A DNA stretch of 56,348 bases, from positions 1 through 56,348 of IMG/VR virus record IMGVR_UViG_3300032260_000005; one strand, written 5' to 3'. The stretch's first letter is position 1, and every line of letters starts with the position of its first letter. This DNA is from a virus (Duplodnaviria > Caudoviricetes). Shown here piece by piece: positions 8,299-56,049 of the stretch. Under the pieces are notes generated by a model. The model did not search any database, had not been told where the DNA came from, and saw only the letters and a list, made by a program, of their open reading frames with translations. Made by a program: the position numbers and the translations under genes.

Positions 8299-8319
8299 TG
8301 CATTTTAAGAGTAACGATC

Positions 8320-8598: not shown

Positions 8599-8619
8599 TG
8601 CGAGATCGAGGAAACAGAA

Positions 8620-8980: not shown

Positions 8981-9068
8981 AAATAACATTCAAAATCAGG
9001 AGCGGCACTCGGTGCCTGCTTAAAAACCACAACGCTTAAACCCGTCTGCTGAATTTTGTTGGTTAGGC
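8981..9068 (-). repeat. attC-like site
   Basis: AAATAAC, CAAAATCAG ... CTGAATTTTG, GTTAGGC. Confidence 0.8.
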
Positions 9069-9099
9069 GATTTGATGAACCGGAAACTAGGAGCTGAAA

Positions 9100-9330: not shown

Positions 9331-9448
9331 CATCGTGCTTAACCTGGCCACGGCCAGACAACACTGGACACTATGAATATGAACAGTACAACTGAAACCA
9401 AAACCAAACACCGCAGTAGTGGATCAGCGTTGAAGCACCTGGTTATGC
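9325..9448 (-). repeat. attC-like site containing start codon (related to 7802-7933)
   Basis: GCCTAAC, GCTTAAC ... GTTGAAGC, GTTATGC. Confidence 0.9.
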
Positions 9449-9864: not shown

Positions 9865-9947
9865 CAACGTAAATAACCGGGCGCGTGCCCAACTTTAAAT
9901 AAAACCACTACTGACGGGGCGCTCCGAGTTGATTTGCCTTGTTAGGT
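9859..9947 (-). repeat. attC-like site (related to 6608-6696)
   Basis: GCATAAC, AAATAAC ... GTTGATTT, GTTAGGT. Confidence 0.9.
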
Positions 9948-9963
9948 TACAGGAGAAACAACC

Positions 9964-10266
9964 ATGAAAGCTATAGGCTACACAGTAAGCACCGTTGTAA
10001 TAATGTTTTTGCTATGCGTATTTAGTGGATACACGTTAAGCATTTTGTGGCAGTGGTTTGTTATGCCAATATTCCCTGCCCCAGAGCTTACGATACCGAC
10101 CGCTATCGGCCTTGCCATGATAGTTACCTATTTGACTCATCAGGACACCAAGAGCGATACAGAAGGGAAAGGATATGGAGAGATACTTCTGGAGATGACA
10201 TTAAAAGGCATTGGCAGACCAGCTGGCGCTTTATTCTTTGGCTGGATAGTAACTCTGTTTTTGTAA
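9964..10266 (+). CDS. Cassette ORF, membrane protein (about 3 TM segments)
   Basis: Hydrophobic stretches; AGGAG RBS. Confidence 0.75.
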   Translation: MKAIGYTVSTVVIMFLLCVFSGYTLSILWQWFVMPIFPAPELTIPTAIGLAMIVTYLTHQDTKSDTEGKGYGEILLEMTLKGIGRPAGALFFGWIVTLFL

Positions 10267-10363
10267 CCTAACAGGTAATATTCGGCACTCGACTGAATTA
10301 CTCAGGTATTAATCGCTCCGCAGCCTTAACTGTTGTGCTGATTGCGGGATATTCGGCAGGCAA
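10267..10363 (-). repeat. Candidate attI-like site, inverted copy of 49210-49307
   Basis: Near-identical 97-nt inverted repeat whose identity ends at the GTTAGG core; TGTAACCTAAC complements GTTAGGTTACA at 9941. Confidence 0.65.
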
Positions 10364-10382
10364 TAATTAGGAGAAAATTAAC

Positions 10383-10601
10383 ATGGCAAAAATCAGAATC
10401 TCCAAATTTAGTTTCCGCAAAGAATGCGAGGAAACAAAAACTATCACCGCTTTCGTGCTGTTTAGAGGCCATAACGTAGGCATAGCAAGGGTTAATGGCA
10501 AGTGGTGGTTTGCTAATGACACGCTACCTGAGCTGACAAAAGAGGAGCAGGAATATTGCGCACAAATGAACTTCGAGGCAGAACAATGCGATACCCAATA
10601 A
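10383..10601 (+). CDS. Hypothetical protein
   Basis: 72 aa, AGGAG RBS. Confidence 0.6.
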   Translation: MAKIRISKFSFRKECEETKTITAFVLFRGHNVGIARVNGKWWFANDTLPELTKEEQEYCAQMNFEAEQCDTQ

Positions 10602-10688
10602 CAGACGTTAAGCACCTTGGCCGGTCACGCTTTCAGAAGTGGCTAGACAGGATTATTGAATTTTTAAACCAACCAGGAAAACCATGAT

Positions 10689-10991
10689 ATGGCAAAGCGA
10701 CTAGTAGCAAAAATTGACACATATGAAAAAGACGGGCAAACGAAAGGCAAATATGTAGAGGTTGGTGTTATCTTGCCAAGCGATAACGGGGAATACGCGC
10801 TAATCCATCCTCATATTGACTTTGCTGGACTACTCATACAGCAACGATTGCTTAATCCAGGCAAGGCCGGAAAGAGCGTATTGTGTTCAATATTCGAGAA
10901 TGATGGCGGTAATCGCCCTACCGAAAATTCAGCACCTTCTTCACCTGCCCCAGCATCGGTTGCTGATTTTGATGACGATATTCCATTCTAG
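10689..10991 (+). CDS. Single-stranded DNA-binding-like protein
   Basis: Beta-rich core, Pro/Ala linker, C-terminal DFDDDIPF tail. Confidence 0.7.
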   Translation: MAKRLVAKIDTYEKDGQTKGKYVEVGVILPSDNGEYALIHPHIDFAGLLIQQRLLNPGKAGKSVLCSIFENDGGNRPTENSAPSSPAPASVADFDDDIPF

Positions 10992-11001
10992 GGAGAAGCC
11001 A

Positions 11002-11190
11002 ATGTCAAGAAAAGGCACAACACATTTAAGCAATAAAACACAGGCAGGAACCCCACCTTGCGAGCTTGGTTGCGAACACGTTATTGAATGCTTTGAGCTG
11101 CAAAAAGCATGTAGACAATACGTCAGATACCAGGCGCATGGGGATATTAAAGAAAACCTACCCCGTAAGCCTCGCAAGGATCTTTATTAG
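11002..11190 (+). CDS. Small Cys-containing hypothetical protein
   Basis: GGGAG RBS before ATG 11002. Confidence 0.5.
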   Translation: MSRKGTTHLSNKTQAGTPPCELGCEHVIECFELQKACRQYVRYQAHGDIKENLPRKPRKDLY

Positions 11191-11229
11191 CAATATGCTA
11201 ATAACCCAGAGCAGATAGGAAAGCTGATT

Positions 11230-11484
11230 ATGAAATTCGAAACCATCAACGGCATGCAGGCCATCACTGAGAATGGAAAGATAATAATGTGGGTGCTTAC
11301 TACATGTAATGGAAAATGGTGCTATGACGTCGTAGGAGCCAAAACAGACGTTAAGCCGGTGGATACTTATGACCAGGCTTTAAATGCAGCGCTTGATGAT
11401 TGGATGGATCTCCAGGTACACGCTGCGCATGTGGCAATAGTCGCAATGCTTATGGTTTTTCATTATTTCTTGACAGTTTTATAG
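11230..11484 (+). CDS. Hypothetical protein with hydrophobic C-terminus
   Basis: 84 aa, AGGA RBS. Confidence 0.5.
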   Translation: MKFETINGMQAITENGKIIMWVLTTCNGKWCYDVVGAKTDVKPVDTYDQALNAALDDWMDLQVHAAHVAIVAMLMVFHYFLTVL

Positions 11485-11498
11485 GAATCAGCCATGCT
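11470..11498 (+). promoter_or_regulatory. Sigma70-like promoter
   Basis: TTGACA-17 nt-CATGCT. Confidence 0.5.
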
Positions 11499-11550
11499 TT
11501 TAATCAGTGATTGTGGTGGTCACTTAGTAATTGGGATACATGGTACAGAG

Positions 11551-11653
11551 CCTCTTGAGTTGTCTTCTGGCTCCAATATAGCAACCGCAAAATCCATGTA
11601 TCCAATTCGCTATATTGGTCATCCACCCAGAAGGCAGCTCAAGGGGTTTTTTT
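11551..11653 (+). terminator. Long terminator/attenuator hairpin with internal alternative pairing
   Basis: CCTCTTGAGTTGTCTTCTGG pairs with CCAGAAGGCAGCTCAAGGGG, then T-tract. Confidence 0.65.
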
Positions 11654-11754
11654 ATGCCCCAAGAAAAACCTTCCAAATCACTCGCCAGAAATGCGAGATC
11701 TCATTCCGGTTCATTGTCCGGGTTTTCAAGAAAGCAATGATGAGTACGTTTAAT

Positions 11755-11975
11755 TGTGGAGCGGCGTGGAAAGCTGCGGCCTTGATCAATATTCGGTTAT
11801 GCGTAACCCATTATTATCAAGTCGCTGGAGACACGCGGGAAGTGCGGGAACAAGCGCACATCAGGGCAGGCGAAAGCCGATGAGGTTCCGGGTATCGGCA
11901 TAATCACCGCGAATGCGGCGAAGTCCCGAGAAGCGCACCGATACCATAGCTGGAGTAGCGTCCAGCCTCCACAAC
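11755..11975 (+). ncRNA. Candidate tRNA-like structured RNA with long insertions
   Basis: TGTGGAG/CTCCACA closing stem, GCGTG/CACGC arm, GCTGG-loop-CCAGC arm next to the 3' end. Confidence 0.4.
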
Positions 11976-12215
11976 TAAACGTATTCAACACAACGTACAG
12001 AAGCAACGTTTTTGAGCCGATCGTTAAACAGGTTTTATCTTGGAGACACAAGGAGAGTCCAGATGGTGCGGATTAATACCAGAGACCCACAAGATCTCAA
12101 AATTAATTGCCTGATATATTGCTGCTGTAACTATGAGAGTAAAGAGGGCTGTTCCTTCCATATCCAAGGTACGGCTCTAAAGTGACAACTATTGTCTAAA
12201 TAACTGGAGAAGGAA

Positions 12216-12509
12216 ATGGATGACAAATTAAAAGTGAAATTATACTTTCTGATGGGTGGCAAGCATCAGAAAAATGAGATTGAAGTAGAGACACATGAAC
12301 CATACACGCCTGAAGACTGGGGGGTTACTGTTGCAACAACAACGATAGAGATACCTTTGCCAGATGTCAGTAGGGCAGAAATGACTAATAAAATGGTCGG
12401 AATTCTGGAGGCCAAAAAGAAGAAAAAGCAGGCCGAATGTCAGCTTGAACTTAATGAGATCGACAAGAAAATAGGCGAATTACTAGCACTCGAAGCGCCA
12501 AAGGAATAG
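12216..12509 (+). CDS. Hypothetical phage protein with coiled-coil C-terminus
   Basis: 97 aa, GGAG RBS. Confidence 0.7.
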   Translation: MDDKLKVKLYFLMGGKHQKNEIEVETHEPYTPEDWGVTVATTTIEIPLPDVSRAEMTNKMVGILEAKKKKKQAECQLELNEIDKKIGELLALEAPKE

Positions 12510-12516
12510 CAATCAT

Positions 12517-12602
12517 GGCAGCGAACAGCAACCGGCAAACCTGCAACTAAGTAGTGAGGTCGGAAGGGCGTACATTGGGTTTGAGTCCTGACGCTGGCAC
12601 CA
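12517..12602 (+). ncRNA. tRNA-like element or pseudo-tRNA
   Basis: GGCAGCG/CGCTGGC stem (6/7) + A + CCA; T-arm-like GGGTTTGAGTCCT; D and anticodon arms non-canonical. Confidence 0.4.
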
Positions 12603-12627
12603 AACAAGCAACTATGGAGAAACGAGC

Positions 12628-12831
12628 GTGATCACCAACTTCGGAGACAGGAAAGAGTGTCAACAAACGGGGATTATTACGGCTTTTGTAGACGATGATG
12701 ACCATCCATGCGCGGTAGTTAGGCAGGGAATGGTTTGGATGTTTATGGATGAAAGCCTCCGCATTCTAACAACAGAAGAGCAGGAATACTGTTCAATAGA
12801 GAACTTTAAGATGGAGAATGGAGATGAATGA
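12628..12831 (+). CDS. Hypothetical protein
   Basis: 67 aa, GGAG RBS, GTG start. Confidence 0.55.
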   Translation: MITNFGDRKECQQTGIITAFVDDDDHPCAVVRQGMVWMFMDESLRILTTEEQEYCSIENFKMENGDE

Positions 12832-12968
12832 ATTCGCAGATGACTTTCTAAGAGGTCAGCAAGATTGCATTAATGGAAAGCCTCACAAGCAAGGTGAATC
12901 AGATGCATATGATAGAGGCTTTGCTACTCAGTATGCAATGGAGCAGCAGCTAACAGAGGCCACTAAAA

Positions 12969-13454
12969 ATGACAGATGACCATCAAGATCTAGCGGATAG
13001 GCTGAAAGAGCCGTTTCCAGTTAAATCGATACATTGGCGAATTGGCGCAAGAACGAGAGATAAGACCAAAGGGATAGCCCTCGCTTATATCGATGCCAGG
13101 GACGTTATGCACAGGCTTGACACAGTGGCTGGGCCTCTTAAATGGCAGTGCAGATATTCACACGTTACAGCTAAAGGCGTTATCTGTGAGATTGGTATAC
13201 ATGTTGATGGTGAGTGGATATGGAGGGCAAATGGCGCTGGTGACACAGATGTTGAGGCTGAAAAGGGCGCAATGTCAGACGCATTTAAACGAGCCGCTGT
13301 GATGTGGGGTATTGGTCGTTATCTCTATATGCTGCCTAATACGTGGGTAGCTCTAGAAAATGAAGGGAAGAAGCTCTCAGGCACACCTAATCTGCCTGCA
13401 TGGGCTACACCTGAAGGCTATAAGGCAGCACTTGAAAAAAGGAGCGCAAAATGA
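12969..13454 (+). CDS. Rad52/Sak-like single-strand annealing recombinase
   Basis: LAYIDARDVMHRLD ... EAEKGAMSDAFKRAAVMWGIGRYLY. Confidence 0.9.
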   Translation: MTDDHQDLADRLKEPFPVKSIHWRIGARTRDKTKGIALAYIDARDVMHRLDTVAGPLKWQCRYSHVTAKGVICEIGIHVDGEWIWRANGAGDTDVEAEKGAMSDAFKRAAVMWGIGRYLYMLPNTWVALENEGKKLSGTPNLPAWATPEGYKAALEKRSAK

Positions 13455-14134
13455 ACCTATACATCGACATCGAAACGATCCCATCCCAGCAACAATGGGT
13501 TAAAGATGAGATAGCAAAAACCATCGCAGCTCCGGCTCAGTACAAGAAACCAGACAGTATTGCCAGGTGGCTTAAGGATAACAGAGAGTCAGCAGCTGAT
13601 GATAAGTGGCGTAATACTTCGTTTGACGGATCGCTTGGTGAGATTGTCGCTATTTCATGGGCTACTGATGGAGGCTTGCCTAAAGTTGTTAGCAGGGGGC
13701 TTGGTGAGTCTGAAGCAAATATGCTTGATGATTTTTTTAGAAGCGTAACGCTTGACCTAACAGATAAGCAAAATGTACTACATGAGCCAGTATGGATTGG
13801 TCATTACATCACCGGGTTTGATCTTCGTTTTTTGTGGCAGAGGTGCGTTCTTAATGACGTACATCCTACAATATCCATTCCTTATGCTGCAAAACCGTGG
13901 GATAAAGCAGTATTTGACACTAAAATTGAATGGTCAGGCATGCAATCAACTGGCTACGGATCTCTTGATATGGTCAGCAAAATTATGGGGTACGAAGGAA
14001 AGGGCGATATTGATGGATCAAAAGTATGGGATTATGTAAAAGACGGCAGAATCAAAGAGGTTGCAGAATATTGCAAAGATGATGTTGAGAAATGCAGGGC
14101 GCTCCATAGAAGAATGATCTTTGCAGGGGCATAA
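13451..14134 (+). CDS. DnaQ/PolB-like 3'-5' exonuclease
   Basis: YIDIET (ExoI), GHYITGFDL (ExoII), YCKDDV (ExoIII). Confidence 0.88.
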   Translation: MNLYIDIETIPSQQQWVKDEIAKTIAAPAQYKKPDSIARWLKDNRESAADDKWRNTSFDGSLGEIVAISWATDGGLPKVVSRGLGESEANMLDDFFRSVTLDLTDKQNVLHEPVWIGHYITGFDLRFLWQRCVLNDVHPTISIPYAAKPWDKAVFDTKIEWSGMQSTGYGSLDMVSKIMGYEGKGDIDGSKVWDYVKDGRIKEVAEYCKDDVEKCRALHRRMIFAGA

Positions 14135-14223
14135 CCCATGAAACCAGAAACAAAACTAGCACAAAGAGCTGGGCTGCTCTATTTCACGTTGGCATTTCTT
14201 TCTATGCCTGTGGGTGGCTACTG

Positions 14224-14712
14224 ATGAGCAATGATGTTGAAGTTTTTAGGCTGACACATAAGACAGCATTGCAAAATGCAATCACAGAGATCCGGTCGCA
14301 CGATCTTGATGGCACTTATGAGGTCATCGTTAGAAAGATTGCAGCGGCAAAGACTTTAGCTCAATTGGGTGGCTTGTTTGGTTGTTGGAAAGAATACCTT
14401 GCAAACGAGACTGGGGAATCAGTCATTTACATCCATAGGATGTGGAAGGCAAAGTATCTATCACCTATTTACCATGATGATATTATTAACGAAAAGCCAT
14501 GCATTGATGAGGTTTATTGCTGGGCTGAGGCATTACATGCACACAGGGTTAGTGGAGATATGGAAAAGTACAAGGCATGTGCAAAGCGTATCTCTTTAAA
14601 GTGGGCCAACCTAGACCAAACCAGACGATATATGAACGCTATTGAAGCTGATTATCAATCACAGGAAATGCCGCTACCTGTATTGGATAAATTCAGGAAA
14701 TATTACAAATGA
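14224..14712 (+). CDS. NinB/Orf-like recombination accessory protein
   Basis: YEVIVRK...KTLAQ...W...LA pattern and C-terminal helix + LP; context. Confidence 0.5.
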   Translation: MSNDVEVFRLTHKTALQNAITEIRSHDLDGTYEVIVRKIAAAKTLAQLGGLFGCWKEYLANETGESVIYIHRMWKAKYLSPIYHDDIINEKPCIDEVYCWAEALHAHRVSGDMEKYKACAKRISLKWANLDQTRRYMNAIEADYQSQEMPLPVLDKFRKYYK

Positions 14713-15113
14713 AATTCACTATCGGCATTGACCCTGGTAAATCAACAGGGGTAGCAATCTACGACAGGCAGTCAAAAAAGCTGATCGCGCTATCCAATGA
14801 AAACTTCGTGTCCGCGCTGAAATTAATAAAGACCAGCGTGGCCCCTGACGATGTGTTTGCTTGCGTCGTGGAGGTGCCTCGGACTAAGGCAAACTGGCAC
14901 AAAGACAAATCTGGGACAACCGCACATAACATAGGAAGAGTATGCCGAGAAGCTGAGTTAATGTCAGCTATGCTTATGGATATGGGCTATAAGGTCATCA
15001 CGCAGCCTCCGAAGGGTAAGGTTAAGGCTAATGTATTTAAGCAAATAACAGGGTGGGAGGGTAGCTCTAATGAGCATACACGAGACGCAGCTATGCTGTG
15101 CTTTGACCTATGA
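14709..15113 (+). CDS. RuvC-like Holliday junction resolvase
   Basis: IGIDPGKSTGVA, VVEVP, NEHTRDAA. Confidence 0.8.
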   Translation: MKFTIGIDPGKSTGVAIYDRQSKKLIALSNENFVSALKLIKTSVAPDDVFACVVEVPRTKANWHKDKSGTTAHNIGRVCREAELMSAMLMDMGYKVITQPPKGKVKANVFKQITGWEGSSNEHTRDAAMLCFDL

Positions 15114-15409
15114 AGAATAGAGATAGAAAAGAGCTTAACAAAGCTAAACACAGGCCTTGCATCAGATGCGGAATAGACGGTGAAACAAGGGCATCACACT
15201 ATAACGGGTTCCGCTCATATGCTTACGGCAAGGGCAGAGGCATAAAAGGCTCTGATGTAGTCACAGCAGAATTTTGCCACAGGTGCGACGATACATTTTC
15301 AGAATCTAATTATCATAAGTGGGAAGGAGGAAGCAAAAATATTGAGAGGAGTGAGGAGTTCCTGCATTGGGTAATAATGACAAATATCAGACGAGCCGGT
15401 AATGACTAG
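15110..15409 (+). CDS. HNH-like/DUF1364-type nin-region protein
   Basis: PCIRC, GKGRGIKGSD, FCHRCD. Confidence 0.65.
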   Translation: MKNRDRKELNKAKHRPCIRCGIDGETRASHYNGFRSYAYGKGRGIKGSDVVTAEFCHRCDDTFSESNYHKWEGGSKNIERSEEFLHWVIMTNIRRAGND

Positions 15410-15490
15410 CATTATCAGTAAATAAACGAGCAATATTAATCACATAACCCACAAAGCTCGTCGCTTTGTGACTAGAAAAGGAGAAGGATC

Positions 15491-15694
15491 ATTTTAATTT
15501 TAACGAGAAGATGCGGTGAGAGCATTATGATTGGTGATGACGTAACCGTAACGGTGCTAGGCGTTAAGGGCAACCAGGTACGTATCGGGATTAATGCTCC
15601 ACGAGACGTATCGGTACACCGCGAAGAGATCTATGAAAGGATAAAACGGGAACAAGCAGGAAACAATCACATCACAACCGGAGCAAAAAACTAA
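15491..15694 (+). CDS. csrA: Carbon storage regulator CsrA/RsmA homolog with ATT start codon (absent from ORF track)
   Basis: (M)[51 protein letters not shown]; AAGGAG RBS; TAA overlaps next ATG. Confidence 0.93.
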
Positions 15695-15885
15695 TGGCCG
15701 ACAAATCAGAAAAACCAATTAATGCAACCATCTCAATCGCAGGCAGTGAAAAGGAAAACTTCGATGCCGTCTATGCCCACATGACTACCACGCTGCCAGG
15801 CATCACGCCAAACAATGCGGATGTAATGCGGCATGCTTTGCATTTGGCTGCTAAATCGGTTCCGGTTCCTGCAAAAAAGGAATAG
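15694..15885 (+). CDS. Small ribbon-helix-helix-like DNA-binding protein
   Basis: Beta strand ATISI followed by two helices (NNADVMRHAL). Confidence 0.45.
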   Translation: MADKSEKPINATISIAGSEKENFDAVYAHMTTTLPGITPNNADVMRHALHLAAKSVPVPAKKE

Positions 15886-39371: not shown

Positions 39372-39554
39372 ATGACATGGGACGGATACAAAACAAAGCA
39401 TAAAACCCGCTCGCAATCTACTGTGAAGGCAGAGCGTATATTAATTTCATCGCTCAAATGGGCGGCAGCTGCTTTAGCTATATGGCTATTCATAGTCTCA
39501 CCAATGCTCACCCCTCCAGAGTATGACTTACCTGTGGATTTTACTCACGACTAA
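39372..39554 (+). CDS. Small membrane protein, opposite strand
   Basis: 60 aa with one TM segment; TATAAT immediately upstream. Confidence 0.45.
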   Translation: MTWDGYKTKHKTRSQSTVKAERILISSLKWAAAALAIWLFIVSPMLTPPEYDLPVDFTHD

Positions 39555-42500
39555 GCTGCTGTAGCTCTCTATGGCGCTCCCTAAACCTAGCGCCAGCCTC
39601 TTTATCAAAGAGCATATCAGCCTTTTTAAGTGCGTTTCTCAAGCTGGCCGCTGATGGCTTCCATGTAGGAACCGTGTCTCTCATAAGGGCAGCCACATCT
39701 ATTTTTGAGATTCCGCTTTTTAATAGGATACGCCTAATCTGACTAACAGATAACCCGCTTTTACTGGCGGCATGGATAATCTTAAACATATTGCCATAAG
39801 CCTTCTGCCTTAGCTCTGCGCTTAACTCCCATGCGGCTTTCAGCTCATCTTTAGTGATTTTATTCGGATTACGGATAACCTTATTTATCTTCCTTGTTGC
39901 ATCGCGCTTTATATCCTTAAAATCATAGCTTCTATAATATAGCGCAACCTTTGGGTCGAGCGTGGACACCCTCCATCCACCCCAAGCCATAGCCTCATCT
40001 GCTATATTGTACTTCCTGCCAGATGGGGATCTTTCGCCATTAATAGCCTTCATGGTTCGCTCAACATTAGCCATAACCCCCGGCTGAAGGTTCTTTCTGA
40101 GGTGATTCGCAATATCTTTTGTCGCTTCCCACGGCTGATCATGCTCGCTATAAACAGGCGCGCCTGACTCCTTTTTGTTGGCAAGAATCTCAAAAACAGC
40201 GCCAGCTGCAATGTCAGTACCTAAGAACGGCGATAATGTTTCTTTTAATACATCCTTCGCTGATTCCTTCCAATCCTGATCCCTAATAACAGCGGTAATA
40301 GGCCGCTTCCAATAGTTGTACGGGTCAAGAAAAGAGATATCAAAATACTGTAGCTCTCCATTCTCACCTCTTCCTGTGAAAATCAAATTACTGTTTCTCT
40401 GCCAAGGAGCGGCAAGTAGACGAACAGCCTCTTCCTCATCGTCATCAACCCCAAGGGCTGTCTTCATTATTTCCTGAAGAGCATAGGCAAAACTAGATAC
40501 AATCGCTAGCCCAGCAGCGCGGCGCATAGCAATTGGTCGCATGCCAGGTGTCTTCATATCCTCCGCCATGTACTTCACGATATGAATAGATGTGCGAATA
40601 ATCTCCGAAGGGAACGAAACAAATGTTCCAGCTAGCGGGAAGCGGCGCAATGACTGCATTGCTTTTCCAACCATTGAATAGGTTGGGTATGTGTTTCTAA
40701 TGCGCTCCGCTGCTTTCTTCTTTGCTGCTTGCTCGCTAAGGCCGGCATGCTTCATGAGAAGATTCTTTTCATTCTCGAAGCCTATGATTTTCCAAAAATC
40801 ATCTCCGTACTGATAGAATTTCTGGGCGTTTTGCAACAAGAACTCTGCTATAGATACTGCTTTTCCGCGCTTTCCTTTTAGCATGTCTTCCATGCGAGAG
40901 TCATCAAGAAGCCTCATCATCTCGCCTGCATATGGGGTATCGTAAACTACTCCAAGCTCTTTCATCTCTCTTAGATACGCAAGTTTTGACCCTTCGCCCT
41001 GCTGGGTGAAATACTCCCTTAACCCAGCAAGCGATTTGGACGCATGTGAAATATCAAAATGACCGTTCGCCAAAGTGAAAAACATAGCCGATTGCCAGTT
41101 ACGCATCGCAGTAGTTGGTGAAAGTATGGTCTTGCCAAACTTAACCATGCCGTTCATCTGGACAATTGTTCGATACCAATTTTCCATTTGCTCCTTACCC
41201 AGAGCGTCACGGAAAGCCTCCTCTATCTCTGGGTATGTCCATAGTCCATTCAGTGGCGCGTAGGATTCTGACCCATCTGCCGCAAATTGCTTAGTGGCCT
41301 CTGGTGGTCTGTCTGTTCCTTCGAATAGGAAGTTATCCATACCATGCACAAGCACCCGATCAAGAAACTTTTGGTTCCAGATCAATCTGCCCATCTTTGA
41401 TGCTGATTTAGCAAAACTCAATCTAGGGTCAACGTACTCCCCCAGTAAAGCGCGAATTTCAGGAGCTATCTGCTTCCTATGCTTTAGAACAGATAAGTCT
41501 TTTGCGCCTAATTTAGATTCCTTGATGAAAGATTCCATGCTGTCATAGGCGGTTCCTGTTTTCACAATCTCATGTAAAGCAACTTCAGCTAGCCGACCAG
41601 CCTCTGCGGCATCTTCTCCATTAGAGATATGTCTATCACGGATATAATCTCTAGCCGCATTCAGCACATTATCAGGAATCTTTTTAAACCACGTCTTGTC
41701 ATCAAAAGCCCGATAAGAGCGATTAACATATGTCCCTATATTGCTCACTATTGTTTCTAATAGGCCCGCTTTTGCCTGAGCTGCTGCTGAGCCTTCTTGT
41801 GTTAGTGTGTCTACCTCATTGTTTATGATCTCTACATACTGTGCTGATAGCCCGTCTATATACCCCCTCATGGCATATATCTCACTGCGCACAGACTCTG
41901 GTATGCTTGGATCTACGTCACCAGTAAGAGCTTTGCCTAGCTTTTCAAGAAGAGGCTTATCTAGCGCCTCGAAACGTTTTCCATATTCTTTCTTGACCGC
42001 TATTTCTAGCCTTCCCACCAAGTGCCTAACGTCAAACTCAACCACCTCAAACTCTGAATCACGAATAATCTTCTCATCAAACACTTCTTTTGGCAGCAGC
42101 CCACCAGGGCTAAAATACCTCTTCAGCGTTTTATCTGCCTTTTCCCATAGCGGCGTATCTTCTTCTCTCAGGCGCTGGTTTTCTTTCTGGAACTCATTTA
42201 GCTCTGGTTTCTTCCCACTTAGGCCGCGTTTGGAGTAGCCTGCTTTTTTCTCCTCAACAGCTAACCCAACCAGCGGCCTACCATATTCCATTCCAGGATC
42301 AGGTGTGATTCCCTTAAGTATGCGCAGCGAATCCCCGTTGCGATAAATTACATCCGTAAGAAGCCCTTTTTCTATCGCCCGCATGGTTAGTGACTTATAT
42401 CTACCATCTGGGATGTTCACGGCGAACATGTCCTTTGCCCCCGTAGCTCTTGCGAACTTACGTATCTCTGCCGCAAGGCGTAGCGGCCTCCCTTCGTTTA

Positions 42501-45228
42501 TCACATCTAAAGGTACATCCATGACACCTGCTATACCTCCTAAGCCAGCCTTGCGACCTACTAGCTGGAAAGTGCCTTCTGACCCAGCTAACGCCGCGCC
42601 AATATGGGCAGCGTCTTTTGGCTGCATGATCCTCTCTCCAAGAATCTTATGCGGGATCTTTGGAGAGGCAAGATTATACTTATACCTGTCTGGTGTTTTT
42701 GATGTGTCAAGAGCATGCTCGCTGTAATTGGCAGCGCCCTGTTCATTGGTAGCTATGCTTACATATTTCTCATGGTTAATAACAATATGGGATTTAAGCC
42801 CTGGAAGCTTTAAGCTCAGCCTGCCAGTAAAAGCGAGATCGCTTCCTGATGGAGTCGGGTTGCCGGACGGATGATTATGAAGCAGATAATAGCTGTCCGC
42901 TCCAGATGCCTTCATTTTCGCATTTAAATCCTCGATAGCGGCATCCCTGCTGAATCCGCGCCTGCCTTGCCCGACAAATACAGCCGACGCACCTGGAAGC
43001 CTAGATGTAATGCCTGTCTGTCCTACGACGCGCGCTCCTTTCATAAAGAAAATACGGAACGTCTCAAACGATGGGTTTCGATATATCTGAGCCAGCGCCG
43101 CCAGGTCTTTGTGGTTATTTATGGTCTGCCCTATTAGGTAGGTTTTCCCTTCTTCTTGGAAGTCTTTTGGCATGCTGTTAGCGAGTATGGAGCCTTCAAT
43201 CCTCCGCACACGCTCCACTGCTTGAGCTGCTTCTTTGAATGGCTTTTCGTTGGCTTTATTTGGTTCATACTTTGCCTCCAGTTGTGCTACATATTCAGCG
43301 CCAGTCTCGTATATCGCCACGCCATTATCTGTTTCCTTGGTTTGAATGGTAGAAAACAGATCGTCGAATGACTTATGGATTGACTCTTGCTCAGCCTCAA
43401 TAGGATATGGATAGCTGCTATCTGTCTCCAAGCCCAGCGCCTCTGCTGCATCCCAGTATTCTTTAGATACGATGTTGGCAAGATAGTCACTCTCAAAGCC
43501 ATTGGTCTTGAGCCTTTCGATAACATAACTCTCAAATGACCGAGCAGACATTTCTACGCTTGTTGACCAATAGTTTTTGGTTTTCCTTCCATCTAGTTTG
43601 AGTGCGCGCTGCGGCAGCCCAGATGCTTTGATTGCCGTCATTACGCCCTTGAATTTTGCCAGCACCTCTTTCCTGACAGATTTATCCATTAACTCATAAG
43701 GACGATCAGAGACATACTGGATGTTATCTCCGCGCATTCTGGAGAAATAGTTATCTAAAGCATGAAACCACTCATGAGCAAGGCTTCCTGCCCCCTTCTT
43801 TTTGGTGAGATTGATGACGACCCTGCTTGGCTCGTAGTGAGCTGCTGGAGTAATGCCTCCAGCAATCTTTCCTTTGCCTCTAGCACCAAAGGCCATGCCT
43901 AGCTCACCATCCAGTGATATTGCTTTGGACGGTATATCTAACAAGTTAGCAAGATCCATAAGCCCGTCATACGCATCATTTAGGCTTTCTTGTCGTTTGG
44001 CCTGCTCAACCCAGTTGCCGAACTCTACACCCCTAAAGCCAAAGGTTTCACGAAAATCATCAGCTGACACATCTTTGTCTTCGCGATAATTCTTACCTAT
44101 CCTGACCTCGTTGGTAGCTCTTCGGTGTGCAGGTATCTCTTTTCTGTGCTTTAGCGTCTGCTCTAAGGTGTTTTGGTTTTCGTCTATGTGGCTGCGCGCT
44201 TCTTTCGCGGTCTTAAACCCTTCGGCAAGATCAAGATGGTTGCCTCCTACCTTTTTGCCGACAATCCATCCCCGGCCAGGTTCAGCGCGATACTGGTATA
44301 CATCAAAGGAAGTCTGCTTGCCTGTTTTTGGCTTGGCCTGTTCTGTCTCTAGGTAATGCTTCAGCGCCTCTACAGCAGTCTCTCTCGTATCAGATGCGGC
44401 TATCTCGCCACCCATACCTCCAAATGACTTACGGCTTTTTGCTGGAACGTCTACGATCCATTTATTTACATTCCTCTCGTCTCCATAAGATGCATAATGC
44501 CTTTTCTCTAAGGTGATGCCTTTAAGATCAGCTGCGCTACCAGGGAATCCAAGCTCAAGCATTAGATCAACGCGGTCAGCAAGAGTGTTTATCATCCCGC
44601 TATTACGCATCTTATCGAGGAAATTACCCGCGTATGCAGGATTATCTAAAATATCTTTTGCAGCCTTCCTTAAAACAGTAACGCCTTCAACGTACCGTTC
44701 CTTCTGGAAGTTGCTTCGGCCTCTTGGTTTGGCAGGAATCTCTTCGCGCATCACCTTAATTAAAGCTAGTGATTGTGCGTTAGCCCCCTGCTCAGCAAGT
44801 GTCTTGTAGTTTGGCTCTGGGAATGACTTGCTTAGGGGCAGCGCCAGGATGTCGCTTTCTGATAAGTCATTTGACACCTTATCTCTAAATCCAGCCCAGG
44901 TATCCTTTCTTGCCCCGCCTATCTTCTCGCCTACGTCCTCAATCTTCTCGCCGCTTGGCTTGGCCTCCTTAACCGCTTCAACCACTTCAACTACAGGAAT
45001 CCTCCAGCTCTCAGGCACAATCCCGCCCGCCTTAGTGATCTGGCTGTGAATGTCGGTTAATTCTTTGGTGTATTCACTCAGTTTGTCTTTGACCGCCTCC
45101 AGGTGAGCCTCGGCAGGAGTGTAACCCTCTGTGCTTTGATATTCTTTTGAGCCAGCCCGAATATCATCTTTATCCACATTAGGCAGATCCGATAGCTCAG
45201 CAGATAAGCATTTCTTGAGTGTACCCAT
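39541..45228 (-). CDS. Large polyvalent protein (LPD5/LPD1-like zincin region, RadC-like JAB domain, helical C-terminus)
   Basis: KIEDVGEKIGGARKD; FRETFGFRGVEFGNW ... GAGSLAHEWFHALD ... EMSARSFE; LLHNHPSGNPTPSGSD. Confidence 0.85.
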   Translation of the reverse strand: MGTLKKCLSAELSDLPNVDKDDIRAGSKEYQSTEGYTPAEAHLEAVKDKLSEYTKELTDIHSQITKAGGIVPESWRIPVVEVVEAVKEAKPSGEKIEDVGEKIGGARKDTWAGFRDKVSNDLSESDILALPLSKSFPEPNYKTLAEQGANAQSLALIKVMREEIPAKPRGRSNFQKERYVEGVTVLRKAAKDILDNPAYAGNFLDKMRNSGMINTLADRVDLMLELGFPGSAADLKGITLEKRHYASYGDERNVNKWIVDVPAKSRKSFGGMGGEIAASDTRETAVEALKHYLETEQAKPKTGKQTSFDVYQYRAEPGRGWIVGKKVGGNHLDLAEGFKTAKEARSHIDENQNTLEQTLKHRKEIPAHRRATNEVRIGKNYREDKDVSADDFRETFGFRGVEFGNWVEQAKRQESLNDAYDGLMDLANLLDIPSKAISLDGELGMAFGARGKGKIAGGITPAAHYEPSRVVINLTKKKGAGSLAHEWFHALDNYFSRMRGDNIQYVSDRPYELMDKSVRKEVLAKFKGVMTAIKASGLPQRALKLDGRKTKNYWSTSVEMSARSFESYVIERLKTNGFESDYLANIVSKEYWDAAEALGLETDSSYPYPIEAEQESIHKSFDDLFSTIQTKETDNGVAIYETGAEYVAQLEAKYEPNKANEKPFKEAAQAVERVRRIEGSILANSMPKDFQEEGKTYLIGQTINNHKDLAALAQIYRNPSFETFRIFFMKGARVVGQTGITSRLPGASAVFVGQGRRGFSRDAAIEDLNAKMKASGADSYYLLHNHPSGNPTPSGSDLAFTGRLSLKLPGLKSHIVINHEKYVSIATNEQGAANYSEHALDTSKTPDRYKYNLASPKIPHKILGERIMQPKDAAHIGAALAGSEGTFQLVGRKAGLGGIAGVMDVPLDVINEGRPLRLAAEIRKFARATGAKDMFAVNIPDGRYKSLTMRAIEKGLLTDVIYRNGDSLRILKGITPDPGMEYGRPLVGLAVEEKKAGYSKRGLSGKKPELNEFQKENQRLREEDTPLWEKADKTLKRYFSPGGLLPKEVFDEKIIRDSEFEVVEFDVRHLVGRLEIAVKKEYGKRFEALDKPLLEKLGKALTGDVDPSIPESVRSEIYAMRGYIDGLSAQYVEIINNEVDTLTQEGSAAAQAKAGLLETIVSNIGTYVNRSYRAFDDKTWFKKIPDNVLNAARDYIRDRHISNGEDAAEAGRLAEVALHEIVKTGTAYDSMESFIKESKLGAKDLSVLKHRKQIAPEIRALLGEYVDPRLSFAKSASKMGRLIWNQKFLDRVLVHGMDNFLFEGTDRPPEATKQFAADGSESYAPLNGLWTYPEIEEAFRDALGKEQMENWYRTIVQMNGMVKFGKTILSPTTAMRNWQSAMFFTLANGHFDISHASKSLAGLREYFTQQGEGSKLAYLREMKELGVVYDTPYAGEMMRLLDDSRMEDMLKGKRGKAVSIAEFLLQNAQKFYQYGDDFWKIIGFENEKNLLMKHAGLSEQAAKKKAAERIRNTYPTYSMVGKAMQSLRRFPLAGTFVSFPSEIIRTSIHIVKYMAEDMKTPGMRPIAMRRAAGLAIVSSFAYALQEIMKTALGVDDDEEEAVRLLAAPWQRNSNLIFTGRGENGELQYFDISFLDPYNYWKRPITAVIRDQDWKESAKDVLKETLSPFLGTDIAAGAVFEILANKKESGAPVYSEHDQPWEATKDIANHLRKNLQPGVMANVERTMKAINGERSPSGRKYNIADEAMAWGGWRVSTLDPKVALYYRSYDFKDIKRDATRKINKVIRNPNKITKDELKAAWELSAELRQKAYGNMFKIIHAASKSGLSVSQIRRILLKSGISKIDVAALMRDTVPTWKPSAASLRNALKKADMLFDKEAGARFRERHRELQQLSRE

Positions 45229-49209: not shown

Positions 49210-49308
49210 TTGCCTGCCGAATATCCCGCAATCAGCACAACAGTTAAGGCTTGAGGCTGATTTAATACCTGAGTAATTCAGTCGAGTGCCGAATATTACC
49301 TGTTAGGC
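49210..49308 (+). repeat. Candidate attI-like site heading array A
   Basis: Inverted copy of 10267-10363; internal direct repeat TGCCGAATAT (49215, 49287); ends in GTTAGGC. Confidence 0.65.
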
Positions 49309-50274
49309 CGCACTAATCCTATCCTGTGCAATCTTGAAATACTGCTCATCGAGTTCTATTCCAATAAAGCGGCGGTTTAGATTCTTGCAGGCCACACCTG
49401 TGGTTCCGCTGCCCATTGTGAAATCGCATACCGTATCGCCTTCGTTGGTATAGGTGTTGATCAAGTCCTCAATTAATGCTACCGGCTTCTGTGTTGGGTG
49501 CAACCCGGTATAATCTTTTTTGTATTCCAGCACATTGCTTTTGTATTTCTCGCCATCTGGCAAATTAAACACTTTAGGGCTTGCTGCCGTCATCTTTTCT
49601 ATTAAGTCAAACCTGTATGCCTTGTCCTCCTTGGTTAAATCAGCAAACTCTCTAAATCCGCTCATGCAATCTATCTTATATAGCCCTACCAGCTCGCTGT
49701 AGGTTTTCTCTGTACACATATTAAACTGTGAGGTTTCGTGCCTCATAAAGTGGCACAGCCCTTGGTGCCTCATATCTGAAAACACCTCTTTTTTCTTTTT
49801 ACCTATAAACTCGCATATAGCTTTTGCGTATGGGCGCAGAGGGTGAAAGCCTTCAAAATCGTGCTTGGTATGCTTTTTGAAGAAGAGGCATATATCCTCT
49901 GTGTAATTCACTGGCGCTTTGTTTACTACCAGGGAGTTGGCAAAATGATCTTTAAGCCACACTAGCCTATAGCTAAAAGGCACATTATTGTGGGCTTCGC
50001 ATATCATCCTGCTTGTGAATGGCTCCTGGCTAAATATCGCCATCGCTCCATTAACCCGTATAACACGGTTGCACTCTTCGTTAATCTCTTTCTGTGGTAG
50101 GCATTCATCCCACTCTGATTCTGCCAGCCTTTTATATCGCGGCTCACTTGCACCCATTCCACCCGCTGTACCATATGGTGGGTCAGTCAATATCATATCA
50201 ACCGATCCATCTGGTATTTCTTTCATCATCTCAAGGCAATCGCCCTGCATTAGCTTTATCATAGTGGTTTCCAT
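49303..50274 (-). CDS. DNA N6-adenine/N4-cytosine methyltransferase (beta class), carried as a cassette
   Basis: GDCLE, TDPPYG, HPTQKPVAL, DFTMGSGTTG, FIGIELD. Confidence 0.92.
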   Translation of the reverse strand: METTMIKLMQGDCLEMMKEIPDGSVDMILTDPPYGTAGGMGASEPRYKRLAESEWDECLPQKEINEECNRVIRVNGAMAIFSQEPFTSRMICEAHNNVPFSYRLVWLKDHFANSLVVNKAPVNYTEDICLFFKKHTKHDFEGFHPLRPYAKAICEFIGKKKKEVFSDMRHQGLCHFMRHETSQFNMCTEKTYSELVGLYKIDCMSGFREFADLTKEDKAYRFDLIEKMTAASPKVFNLPDGEKYKSNVLEYKKDYTGLHPTQKPVALIEDLINTYTNEGDTVCDFTMGSGTTGVACKNLNRRFIGIELDEQYFKIAQDRISAA

Positions 50275-50291: not shown

Positions 50292-50354
50292 GCCTAACCA
50301 GGCAAATCAACGCGGACAGCAAAAAGCGTTGCCGGTTATTTGCGGATGTTATGT
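50292..50354 (+). repeat. attC-like site (63 nt)
   Basis: GCCTAAC, AAATCAAC ... GTTATTT, GTTATGT; CGGCCTAAC complements GTTAGGCCG at 49302. Confidence 0.92.
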
Positions 50355-50543
50355 GTCTTTAATTATCCGCTCAATATCGCTAGGTTTTAGTTGCTGACGC
50401 CATTTTGGCTTCCAGTCTTCGTGCCATTTTTTTACTTCTCTAGTGACGCTATTAAAAATAACGACCGATACGCAGCCGCTTATTTTATAAAAATACAGCA
50501 CACCATCAACAGTTATTTCCTTTCGCCCTTTCTTGGGTAGCAT
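50349..50543 (-). CDS. Cassette ORF, hypothetical protein
   Basis: 64 aa, AAGGAGG RBS, stop at crossover. Confidence 0.75.
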   Translation of the reverse strand: MLPKKGRKEITVDGVLYFYKISGCVSVVIFNSVTREVKKWHEDWKPKWRQQLKPSDIERIIKDT

Positions 50544-50563
50544 TCGCCAACCTCCTTAGTTAC

Positions 50564-50686
50564 ACATAACAAGCCAATTAAAGCTGACTTGCTACCGCGT
50601 AGTTTAATTTAAAGTTTCTAGTGTTCGTTTTGTTTCAGTGTTTCCAGCGTCATCAATTCGCAAGCAGTTTATTGGTGTCGTTATGC
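50564..50686 (+). repeat. attC-like site
   Basis: ACATAAC, CAATTAAA ... TTTATTG, GTTATGC; ACACATAAC complements GTTATGTGT at 50348. Confidence 0.85.
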
Positions 50687-53123: not shown

Positions 53124-53584
53124 GTTTGCCTCCTCTTGTCGGATTCCTGGCCAAGCTCAGCCTAGCCCTAGTAAAAGGGTGGCGGAGCCTAATATCACGA
53201 AATCACTTATCTGGAATTTAATGCTAGCAAAGCCTGCTTTTCACACAGAACAATTACTATTTAGGCATTTCTCGCCGCCGGTCTTTAGAGTTCCCGTAGG
53301 AGCCTTATAGCGATACTGTCCACATTAATAACCATATTCTCAAGACCTTTCGTGTTCGCTCGATCTCTTGCGCTATGAGAAGCCCAACGGTAACGCAAAT
53401 ATGGATTATCCCGCTGTCATGGTAGACCAACAATAATCCACAATAAGACGCGGTTGAACAAATTAAGAGAAATGGTTTATAATCTGGTTATGGCTTGTCG
53501 CCAATGTTGAACCGATTGCCTTCTCTCTATAAATCTGTTCGACTAGGTACTGAATATACCGCGTCGATAAGCTAATGCTACACT

Positions 53585-53623
53585 AACCCCGCGATGGTTT
53601 CAAACTGTTGCGGGGTTTTTTAT
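53585..53623 (+). terminator. Intrinsic terminator
   Basis: AACCCCGCGATGG / CTGTTGCGGGGTT stem followed by T-tract. Confidence 0.7.
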
Positions 53624-53782
53624 TCTCTAATCACCTTCAATGCAATTTACCACCCCACTTAGCCTGTGAGTCGTTGTAAAACGGCACATTAGGCGGGAAC
53701 CTATAGAAGCCCATAGAAGCCACCAGATAGCCGGTCTTGGCCGGGTCACGGATGCCTGGCGCCTGCAGTTCAGTTAGTTTTT

Positions 53783-54013: not shown

Positions 54014-54085
54014 CTTTTCGCCCCTCCATGCCTGGTTTTTATAAGGCTATCAACTTGTTATAAATAGTTACGTTTAAACGCATGC

Positions 54086-54106
54086 AGGATATTACATGTT
54101 AGGCCG
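54086..54106 (+). repeat. Third attI-like core heading array B
   Basis: GGATATTACATGTTAGGCCG vs GAATATTACCTGTTAGGCCG at 49291; GTTAGGCC complements GGCCTAAC at 54515. Confidence 0.5.
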
Positions 54107-54515: not shown

Positions 54516-54575
54516 GCCTAACAAAACGCTGCACCAGACACTCGCTTCGCTCGTGCAGTGAGCTAAGTGTTAGGC
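54516..54575 (+). repeat. attC-like site (60 nt, classical short type)
   Basis: GCCTAAC AAAAC GCTGCAC ... GTGAGC TAAGT GTTAGGC. Confidence 0.9.
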
Positions 54576-54595
54576 CGCACACTCTACCAGCTGTG

Positions 54596-54886
54596 CTACA
54601 TGTGCAGCATATGAATAACTGCGAGTAATGAATAAGCACCAGTGGCGAATGCAAGCAGTACCAAATAAACACCGGCGATATATTTAATCGCAATAAAAAG
54701 CATCAGTATTAACGTCAGCTTTATAGTCATTAGGCCAGTATACCCTGCATTTTCAATCACCCACCACGCAATTGGATTAGCCTCCTCGTATCCTATTTGT
54801 ATAGCGTTTGCTGTTGCATATACGTCAAACGCATTTGTTATGAGCAACAACAATATTAGAATTTTAGCCATATTAATCTGTTTCAT
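54596..54886 (-). CDS. DUF5658-like membrane protein
   Basis: FDVYAT ... EEANPI ... K, three TM segments. Confidence 0.7.
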   Translation of the reverse strand: MKQINMAKILILLLLITNAFDVYATANAIQIGYEEANPIAWWVIENAGYTGLMTIKLTLILMLFIAIKYIAGVYLVLLAFATGAYSLLAVIHMLHM

Positions 54887-54936
54887 ATCTCCTCCGTATA
54901 AGGCCGCGCAAGTCGAAACCTGCGCGGCCTTGCGTC

Positions 54937-55482
54937 CTATTCAGCGCTAATGGTTACCGTTGCTTTCCCTGATTTAGTAACCCTGTTCTTCTCATAATCA
55001 ACCTTTACGCTGTACGGATACGTGGTCACTTTCGTTTCAACATACACAGGCTCAATCATTCCGGTCTTGCCCGCGCATAGAACCCATGTTGCTGCTGTGT
55101 TTTTACTGGCGAAAATACCGTTTGGCTCTGCCTGTTCAACAACATGCCTATCATAAGAACTTCGACCAAAATCTGTAGCTGTTAGCGGGTTAGTCAAGCT
55201 TGTGTCATAAGGGATGCCGAAGCCTATACTAGGGCAATCACCCTCAATCAAGCCTCTGTCGCTGCGCCATACTGAATGTGTCACAGCCTTTAGGTTGCGC
55301 AAATTATATAGCTCTATAATCAAATGCCTCTCTAGACTCCAGTCGTACATAGGAACGGGCTGCGAGGCTGCATACTGGCTTTGCTGTGCCTGAACTTGCT
55401 TCCTGTCTTTGGTCTCCTGGTTTTGCTCGTTACAGGCGGTCAACCCAAATGCCACTAAGACTACGAATATAACTTTTTTCAT
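54937..55482 (-). CDS. Lipoprotein
   Basis: Signal peptide with LTAC lipobox. Confidence 0.8.
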   Translation of the reverse strand: MKKVIFVVLVAFGLTACNEQNQETKDRKQVQAQQSQYAASQPVPMYDWSLERHLIIELYNLRNLKAVTHSVWRSDRGLIEGDCPSIGFGIPYDTSLTNPLTATDFGRSSYDRHVVEQAEPNGIFASKNTAATWVLCAGKTGMIEPVYVETKVTTYPYSVKVDYEKNRVTKSGKATVTISAE

Positions 55483-55492
55483 GCCATTCCCC

Positions 55493-55813
55493 TTATTTTG
55501 TAATTGCTAATAGTTGGGCTTTAAGTACCCGTTTCTGCCCAAGAAGCTCATCCCTATTGCCTTGCCCTGTTGAAATCATTGCGTCTATTTCGGCAATATT
55601 TGCTTTCAACACCCCGGCTCGCTGTTCCATTCCCTCAATGTATTGATGGCTATTTACTAGAACCTGGCGCTCAACCATCTTTCCGCCTATTAAGCCAAAG
55701 CTTTTAAGACCAAACCCAATAGCAACAATTAGCAGCAATATTGGAAGGAATTTCCATATTGTCCAGTGTGCTTCTTTTGCTACCTGCCGTGCGTCGTTTC
55801 TGTAGTCGTTCAC
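55493..55813 (-). CDS. Membrane-anchored coiled-coil protein
   Basis: One TM segment then helical region; GGGAG RBS, GTG start. Confidence 0.7.
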   Translation of the reverse strand: MNDYRNDARQVAKEAHWTIWKFLPILLLIVAIGFGLKSFGLIGGKMVERQVLVNSHQYIEGMEQRAGVLKANIAEIDAMISTGQGNRDELLGQKRVLKAQLLAITK

Positions 55814-55825
55814 TTTATTGCTCCC

Positions 55826-55962
55826 AATAAAAAACCTCCCTCCTCTCCTGGGTTAGACTGCCGGTAGTGGCACCAAGAGCGGAAGAAGGTTTTGTATTAA
55901 TCTACCGTATACGGGTCTAACACCGTGTTTCTTAATTTAGTCTGCTATCAGCGGTTAGTCAA
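55826..55962 (-). promoter_or_regulatory. Cassette-internal promoter and attenuator-like leader
   Basis: TTGACT-17-TAAATT (55962-55934); terminator stem 55893-55831 whose loop is complementary to upstream GTTAGAC..CGGTAG. Confidence 0.6.
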
Positions 55963-55979
55963 TACCTGCGTTGGTGCTG

Positions 55980-56049
55980 CCCTAACAAAGCGCTGCACCA
56001 GACATTCGCTGCGCTGCGCTTGCTCATGCATGTGAGCTAAGTGTTATAC
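55980..56049 (+). repeat. attC-like site (arms shared with 54516)
   Basis: CCCTAAC AAAGC GCTGCAC ... GTGAGC TAAGT GTTATAC. Confidence 0.9.

Follow-up and report, generated by a model that had tools for sequence, protein, structure and literature searches.

A 97-nt element at the ends of cassette arrays in an integrase-less phage genome, a candidate attI-type site

What is the function of a 97-nt element that occurs twice, in inverted orientation, in the genome of a sediment phage, and that in both places adjoins the last gene of an array of attC-like sites? Integron cassettes represent a bacterial gene-capture system, and bacterial integrons hold many cassettes that specify anti-phage defence. 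A preliminary description of this DNA had proposed that the element is a duplicated attI site, and here we weigh that proposal against other functions that the element might have. Throughout, the window refers to the whole stretch of DNA that was analysed, namely virus record IMGVR_UViG_3300032260_000005 (56,348 nt), which has a terminal repeat of 106 nt and a completeness rating of 100%.

The element and its place in the phage genome

Strand skew and the arrangement of the ORFs indicate that the genome is organized as two transcription arms that diverge from a central promoter pair. The plus arm extends from 5952 to 15885, and the minus arm extends from 5827 through the record ends to 15961 (the positions of the principal features are given in Table 1). 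We scanned 76 ORFs with Pfam, and the same ORFs together with ten more with PHROGs. The structural genes comprise those for the small and large terminase subunits, an SU10-type portal, the major head protein, and tail fibres; other core genes encode a helicase, a primase-like protein, an HNH endonuclease, and a polyvalent protein of 1895 aa. (Note that the gene for the polyvalent protein, at 39541-45228 on the minus strand, is part of the operon headed by copy B, and that its product contains LPD5, LPD1, and RadC-like JAB domains.) Recombination genes are also present, encoding Erf, an exonuclease, and a Holliday-junction resolvase, as is a gene for an N6/N4 DNA methyltransferase (49303-50274, minus strand). 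Neither the element (by blastn) nor 15 kb of sequence (by megablast) found a match among 50,697 known phage records (INPHARED). A gap of ~500 nt (53124-53636) separates the helicase gene from the end of array C, and within it a GC-rich hairpin (53585-53617), with a T run after it on the plus strand, forms a terminator-like structure that faces against the minus arm.

Searches of the complete 56-kb genome in any frame detected neither a tyrosine recombinase (PF00589, E up to 1) nor a serine recombinase (PF00239, E up to 1), and no recombinase was found among the 76 ORFs scanned with Pfam or in three related fragment records. With no match to PF00239, the invertase gene that accompanies the short inverted crossover sites of a Gin/Cin/Hin-type segment was not found.

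Copies A and B of the element can be aligned over 99 columns (10267-10363 with 49307-49210), 93 of which are identical. The claim that this is a 97-bp inverted repeat whose differences are confined to its centre therefore holds, with three mismatches and three gaps that all fall within 10313-10321/49252-49261. To one side of this variable centre the inverted arms (10267-10312/49262-49307) are 100% identical over 46 nt, and to the other side (10322-10366/49207-49251) they are 98% identical over 45 nt; these are two of only three inverted pairs of at least 30 nt in the window. As had also been described, a direct repeat is present twice in each copy, with exact matches to TGCCGAATAT at four places only in the window, and the identity between the copies stops at CCTAAC, which adjoins the stop codon of the last gene of the array. 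(In copy B, the TAA stop codon of the methyltransferase gene sits within CCTAAC.) Relative to local transcription the two copies are oriented alike, and they are inverted with respect to one another because the plan of the genome is divergent. Directly downstream of copy A are a ribosome site and the start of gene 10383-10601, followed by the recombination module, and downstream of copy B is a run of overlapping, tightly packed genes that leads to the structural module.

Neither strand of the element folds better than shuffled sequences (z of +0.0 to +0.8 for RNA and of +0.15 for DNA), in agreement with the earlier statement that it is not palindromic like attC. The possibility that the 97-mer is itself an attC was rejected on these grounds and because the imperfect palindrome with R''/R' and L''/L' pairing is absent. 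We likewise rejected a structured RNA, since the window contains no Rfam family at gathering score and no tRNA or tmRNA, and since the element folds no better than shuffles. Inside either copy, a consensus scan (at least 9 of 12 matches, with a spacer of 16-18 nt) found no sigma-70-like promoter, and no terminators are listed there. Apart from the third copy discussed below, further matches to submotifs of the element in the window were limited to scattered 14-mers with two mismatches, which we take to be due to chance.

The start of the element may constitute a simple site, made up of an R box, a 7-nt spacer, and an L box, with a candidate crossover point at AA|C within the CCTAAC of the R box. 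When compared to the inverse of GCCTAAC, the L box agrees at 5 of 7 positions, a match whose probability by chance we estimate at ~0.05 if spacings of 5-8 nt are allowed. A diverged relative (contig L100, see below) has retained the two boxes and the distance of 7 nt between them, though the letters of the spacer change, and the third copy has largely retained them as well. This third copy comprises the start of the element only and is divergent after the first ~21-25 nt; array C ends at its edge, at 54103. That the third copy is limited to the start of the element points to the R box, the 7-nt spacer, and the L-like box as the part that would be relevant for joining. The distal ~72 nt of the element contain CCTTAAC-T-GTTG. 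With regard to the direct repeats the preliminary description does need to be amended, in that it likened them to those of attI1; they copy the L-like box rather than the core, and they do so 71-72 nt apart.

Table 1 Positions of the element, its parts, and the neighbouring arrays in the window
Feature	Position (nt)	Strand	Remarks
Central divergent sigma-70-like promoters	5864-5945		TTGACT-17-AATAAT on plus strand, TTGACC-17-TAAAGT on minus strand; strand switch in skew
Array A	6608-9947	+	9 attC-like sites with cassettes; sense strand would be attC bottom strand
Copy A of the 97-nt element	10267-10363	+	Between membrane-protein gene 9964-10266 (last cassette of array A) and gene 10383-10601
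Candidate simple site, copy A	10267-10287	+	R box CCTAAC 10267-10272, spacer 10273-10279, L box ATTCGGC 10280-10286
Variable centre	10313-10321	+	Type A; type B at 49252-49261
Direct repeat ATATTCGGCA, copy A	10278-10287 and 10349-10358	+	Second lies 71 nt after first; kept in L100
Copy B of the 97-nt element	49210-49307	-	Between methyltransferase gene of array B and structural operon 49126 to 39541
Candidate simple site mirror, copy B	49307-49287	-	Same layout of R box, 7-nt spacer, and L box
Direct repeat ATATTCGGCA, copy B	49224-49215 and 49296-49287	-	Spacing of 71-72 nt across the copies
Array B	50292-50686	-	2 attC-like sites; cassettes are 64-aa gene 50349-50543 and methyltransferase gene
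Third, partial copy	54079-54103	-	18 of first 21 nt and 20 of 25 nt matched (E 7.6e-5); distal end of array C
Array C sites	21-4900 and 54516-56049	-	Long minus-arm array

attC-like sites and the orientation of the cassettes

The early genes form three arrays that contain 26 attC-like sites of 60-133 nt. The sites start with RYATAAC or GCCTAAC, usually with a TAA stop codon inside, and they end with GTTAKRY ahead of the next ribosome site. We based the attC calls on our own folds of single-stranded DNA and on alignments of one arm with the other. In about 11 of the 19 sites that were folded, the two arms pair to form an R box of 7 bp and an L box, separated by an internal loop, and single-base bulges are confined to the 3' arm. 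The fold z-scores are -2.7, -3.2, and -2.4 at best; many are weak and two are above zero. When the 5' arm was aligned to the reverse complement of the 3' arm, the 3' arms were found to contain 64 extra bases and the 5' arms 18, with two sites having their extra bases mainly on the 5' arm. The first extra base is a G in 15 of 23 sites, and in 11 of 23 the arrangement is a G, six paired bases, and a T, the middle extra base being optional.

According to the excerpted text of Nivina et al. 2016 (PMC5027507), the attC bottom strand carries extrahelical bases opposite the AAC triplet, G first and T last with a 6-bp stem between them, together with an unpaired spacer of 5-6 nt, and is cleaved between A and C. 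The phage sites display the same extrahelical pattern, the comparison being one of pattern and not of absolute position numbering. Because it is the 3' arm of the sense strand that carries the extrahelical bases, the sense strand of the phage genes would, on this evidence, be the attC bottom strand. It follows that the attI side of each array would be its distal end, which is where the element sits. All 26 sites carry their gene on the attC bottom strand, the reverse of classical cassette polarity. With at least two sites of the form RYYYAAC...GTTRRRY, each within 57-141 nt and with an unpaired spacer and extrahelical G/T, the arrays have the properties of an integrase-less attC cluster (CALIN).

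Several other features of the arrays deserve mention. In the long attC sites (7016-7139, 7802-7933, and 9325-9448 on the plus strand, and 3650-3772 and 648-780 on the minus strand) the ribosome site and the start codon are located inside the hairpin loop; the ORFs leave these sites via the 3' arm, so that unrelated genes share an N-terminus that is encoded by the site (..SALNxLVM..). A perfect direct repeat of 92 nt (934-1025 and 4004-4095) comprises one attC and the start of the next ORF, and is positioned between different minus-arm genes. The cargo of the cassettes on both arms includes CsrA-like, ribosome-modulation-factor-like, and MazG-like pyrophosphohydrolase proteins, a phosphoesterase, a Lar-like restriction-alleviation protein, endonucleases, and a DNA methyltransferase. 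Ribosome modulation factor (RMF) is a gammaproteobacterial family, and the RMF-like cassette hints at a gammaproteobacterial host.

Cassette junctions and related contigs

If circular cassettes are cut at AA|C, then the RYYYAA at the end of a gene should pair with the GTTRRRY of that gene's own upstream attC. As a measure of this footprint, we used the length of the uninterrupted run of complementarity between the gene end and an attC. For gene ends and their own upstream attC sites (n=23) the mean and the median were both 8 nt, with runs of at least 8 nt in 15 of 23 cases. Gene ends and their present hairpin partners gave a mean of 4.9 nt (n=26; at least 8 nt in 2), as did all other pairs (n=625; at least 8 nt in 21). 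Own pairs thus exceed the background (Mann-Whitney p = 1e-11) and present partners show no excess (p = 0.59), which argues that the cassette unit consists of C, attC, ribosome site, gene, and RYYYAA.

This footprint is present wherever a cassette abuts the element. The run measures 11 nt at copy A and 9 nt at copy B, as the preliminary description had noted for the complementarity between the core and the R'' of the first cassette, and it measures 8 nt at the third site. In related contigs it amounts to 14 nt (L166), 10 nt (L178), 8 nt (L100), 7 nt (L133), and 7 nt (L108). All eight terminal junctions have the attC located one gene upstream as their best partner within 1.4 kb, so that the AA|C of the element marks the precise end of a whole cassette. 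Since the element supplies the C at the cassette end and is not a hairpin, it would occupy the attI slot of the array. Seven full copies were compared, two from the window and five from other contigs, and in all of them TAAC is where homology begins. At least six different terminal genes lie upstream of copies of the element, such that near-identical copies differ in their neighbour, and the joins share TAACA (5 nt) only. Contigs from two other studies (runs X2 and X3) contain further joins of this type. In run X2, position 8983 is joined to 10269, and gene 6245-6613 is joined at TAAC to third-site sequence; in a contig of run X3 a minus-arm gene is joined at CTAAC to a plus-arm attC. A contig of run X2 also joins the homologous attC sites 6611-6693 and 9862-9945 (6633 to 9871) and skips 3.2 kb, which would represent a deletion of multiple cassettes if there are no letters between the two pieces.

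The element recurs in four metagenome contigs (L133, which is the same as L006 and L095, L166, L108, and L178) and, in diverged form, in L100. It is therefore not an artefact of the assembly of this record. To find relatives we used a gapped pattern in which both 10-mers had to be exact, which identified more than 117 metagenome stretches and 120 genome stretches, and homology was then judged by blastn. Only five contigs, all metagenomic, proved to be homologous, the remaining matches being chance or unrelated repeats, and the element was found solely in phage-like metagenome contigs. No homolog was found in 185,579 species genomes, in a scan that demanded an exact match of both 10-mers and misses diverged copies. 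The preliminary description had proposed a search of bacterial genomes for the element next to intI; with no homolog among these genomes, no copy beside intI was found. Scans of IMG/VR for the exact pattern returned one other contig at most. Searches with phage proteins recovered the element rarely: the 610-aa protein identified 11 loci, with the element in L006 only; Erf identified 80 loci, none with the element; the 121-aa central protein identified the same contig only; and gene 10689-10991 identified two distant phages, both without the element and without arrays.

Where relatives are available for comparison, the element is more highly conserved than the genes that flank it (131/133 compared to 334/389 identical positions in L166, and 97/99 compared to 292/319 in L178). 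L178 combines a type B centre with the gene that lies downstream on the A side. The plus arm of L133 has a central region that is 99% identical to that of the window and a last gene that is 100% identical to window 8575-8988; it then passes through the element into the B-side operon, while the plus arms of the window and of L178 pass into the A side. The arrangement in L133 and the mixture of centre and flank in L178 would fit exchange (inversion) between copies, a possibility that the preliminary description had raised. That proposal thus finds support in an inverted arrangement, but a mis-join at the ~100-nt repeat could produce the same arrangement in L133. Logan contigs break inside the repeat, and none of those listed bridges copy A. 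(L133, on its reverse strand, also contains a perfect TTGACA-17-TATAAT promoter within its array, about 3.2 kb upstream from the element; in front of this promoter CCGCCTTTAAC is repeated three times in tandem.)

Possible functions and comparison with known systems

The reading that we favour, with moderate confidence, is that the element is a fixed, double-stranded end site of the phage cassette arrays, one that would be an attI in function and would be served in trans. As regards the position and layout expected of an attI, the original proposal stands in part. The element heads the array on the side that is set by attC polarity, it is joined at G|TT (AA|C on the bottom strand), and at 8 of 8 junctions the TTRRRY end of the first cassette is complementary to its own R''. 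The part that does not stand concerns the integrase, since the genome encodes none and the scan of species genomes with exact 10-mers found no copy of the element beside intI. Nor is there a cassette promoter (Pc) on the attI side that reads into the array, as the array genes run towards the element from the promoters at 5864-5945. The element works like an attI at the level of sequence footprints, and it is a candidate member of the attI family.

The arrays are built of units, each composed of C, an attC hairpin, a ribosome site, a gene, and RYYYAA, with AA|C as the point of joining. We envisage that the initial 21 to 25 nt of the element (the R box, the 7-nt spacer, and the imperfect L box) would be bound as a duplex by a tyrosine recombinase of the IntI type. 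Because the phage encodes no such enzyme, it would have to be supplied in trans, most likely by the integron of the host. The sense (bottom) strand of the element would then be exchanged with that of a folded attC, resulting in the addition or removal of cassettes beside the element. The other ~72 nt, with the second ATATTCGGCA and CCTTAAC-T-GTTG, may contain accessory binding sites, act as a leader for the core operon, or both. Two inverted copies of the element would be accounted for by two arrays that point outwards, and recombination between the copies could invert the early region of 17 kb. A point against this reading is that existing junctions could also be passed on by homologous exchange when related phages co-infect a cell. 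As a tentative proposal for the genome as a whole, the phage might be a recombinase-less one with three docking sites for a host integrase, a phage-specific cassette pool, and a flippable early region, in other words an inverted, integrase-less integron. Cassettes from this pool (those for the methyltransferase, CsrA, ribosome modulation factor, the Lar-like protein, and others) might in this way be inserted at the far end of each early operon, and might be read towards the docking site from phage promoters.

We consider it unlikely that the element serves solely as a leader with a regulatory function (a promoter, an operator, or both) for two delayed core operons, those for recombination (copy A) and for structural proteins (copy B). 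According to this idea the element would lie at the ends of arrays because the core operons start there, and the ATATTCGGCA boxes would bind a phage regulator. Such a role would be consistent with the fact that both copies are oriented like the genes downstream of them, that a ribosome site and a gene are located no more than 17-30 nt beyond the element in copy A and in L100, and that the packing of genes changes at the element, the B side having overlapping genes without attC sites. The element also contains TTAACT-16-GATATT, both hexamers of which are kept in the diverged L100 with a changed spacer, and the ~72 nt past the first 25 are conserved and are absent at the third array end. However, this candidate promoter matches the consensus at 8 of 12 positions only, the consensus scan found no promoter in either copy, and the element has no RNA structure signal and belongs to no Rfam family. 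Moreover, a leader function leaves two findings unexplained, namely that complete cassettes end at AA|C in all eight instances although the neighbours differ, and that the first 21 nt of the element recur at the end of a third array. Note that a leader function is compatible with the attI reading as a second function of the element, and a second, regulatory role is likely given that the distal 72 nt, which are conserved but absent at the third site, probably have a function other than docking.

Another possibility is that the element is simply a passive boundary, i.e., backbone DNA or a decayed attC stump into which a first cassette had been inserted at a secondary GTT site. Later diversity would then stem from attC x attC recombination and from homologous recombination, and gene conversion would have kept the copies alike. 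The first ~20 nt of the element do resemble the 5' arm of the phage attC sites (TAAC-A..GT-A(A/T)AT..CGG), the phage encodes Erf, an exonuclease, and a Holliday-junction resolvase, the centre type of L178 is unlinked to its flank in a manner that fits gene conversion, and the insertion of cassettes by IntI at non-att genomic sites has been reported (bioRxiv 10.1101/2022.09.11.507474, as excerpted). A passive boundary is improbable in our view, since a terminal junction cannot be formed anew unless recombination takes place at the element's own core, and copies with 97-100% identity are found next to six or more different terminal cassettes. The 5 nt that the joins share are too few for homologous exchange, the ending of three arrays on homologous sequence is not expected from a random secondary site, and the element is more conserved than its coding flanks. 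We think it very improbable that the copies are instead the ends of a programmed invertible segment resembling Mu G or P1 C, or that they are cis-acting RNAs resembling nutL/nutR or putL/putR. The inverted copies do bound a 17-kb segment, with the plus arm of L133 leading to the B-side operon and those of the window and L178 to the A side, but there is no serine invertase or other recombinase, and the join in L133 is possibly an assembly error at the ~100-nt repeat. A cis-acting RNA would be in keeping with the presence of copies in both divergent early transcription units, but the element folds no better than shuffles (z 0.0 to +0.8) and the distances from the promoters to its copies are 4.3 kb and 12.8 kb, so that neither copy is positioned immediately after a promoter.

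If a phage that lacks an integrase maintains docking sites of its own and has some 26 cassettes as a pool, the integrase of the host would shape phage genomes during infection, and genes for counter-defence and take-over could be traded in the manner of resistance cassettes. The short, defined sequence (R box, 7 nt, L box) is a candidate for a new type of attI, and the arrays would provide a natural case of cassettes that are built for reading against the classical polarity.

Cassettes of a different kind, the promoter-early stem-loop (PeSL) cassettes of T4-type phages, recombine by homologous recombination at repeated promoter-hairpin units. Like the sites described here, PeSLs are conserved over a short length, are located in the intergenic regions of variable early genes, and favour the shuffling of modules; unlike PeSLs, the joins in this phage share 5 nt only and its sites bear the integron attC signature. 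Our literature search found nothing on integron-like intergenic elements between phage early genes.

With attI1 and the attIA of Vibrio cholerae the element has in common that it is a non-hairpin site at the head of an attC array, on the G side of G|TT. As at attI sites, the first cassette has the footprint of a circular cassette, and the R-type core of the element is CCTAA|C. The element also resembles attI1 in having extra direct repeats; its inverted L box is only possible. In attI1, DR1 and DR2 constitute added IntI1 sites, attIA has none, and attI sites are without a common sequence (PMC8946536). The repeats of the element differ from those of attI1 (PMC8946536) in that they copy the L-like box, not the core, 71-72 nt apart. 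The element differs further from attI in having no intI next to it or anywhere in the genome, and in lacking a promoter directed from it into the array, transcription of the cassette genes instead proceeding towards it from distant phage promoters. (In integrons, the selectivity for the bottom strand serves expression from Pc, according to PMC8946536.) Finally, two full copies and one partial copy are present in one phage genome.

Phage-borne integron sequences provide the closest parallels. Among the titles and abstract openings covered, and with the supplements of Qi et al. aside, we found no report of an integrase-less phage with a repeated docking site of its own. Qi et al. 2023 (PMC9892861, in its excerpted text) identified 3 complete integrons, 1 In0 element, and 17 CALINs in 10,705 phage genomes, and IntI1 recombined 5 of 6 attC sites that were tested from virulent phages. 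In the Shewanella prophage M16-3, a duplicated attI heads two arrays (PMC9892861, same text). M16-3 differs from the phage described here in having an intact intI and the attI of its host genus, whereas the present phage has no integrase and no known host attI. In the present phage, 26 sites take up ~30% of 56 kb and all genes are on the attC bottom strand. What the systems share, as far as the excerpted text of PMC9892861 describes them, are phage-borne attC arrays, including CALINs without an integrase of their own, DNA methyltransferases among the cassettes, and, in the case of M16-3, one attI-type sequence that heads two arrays.
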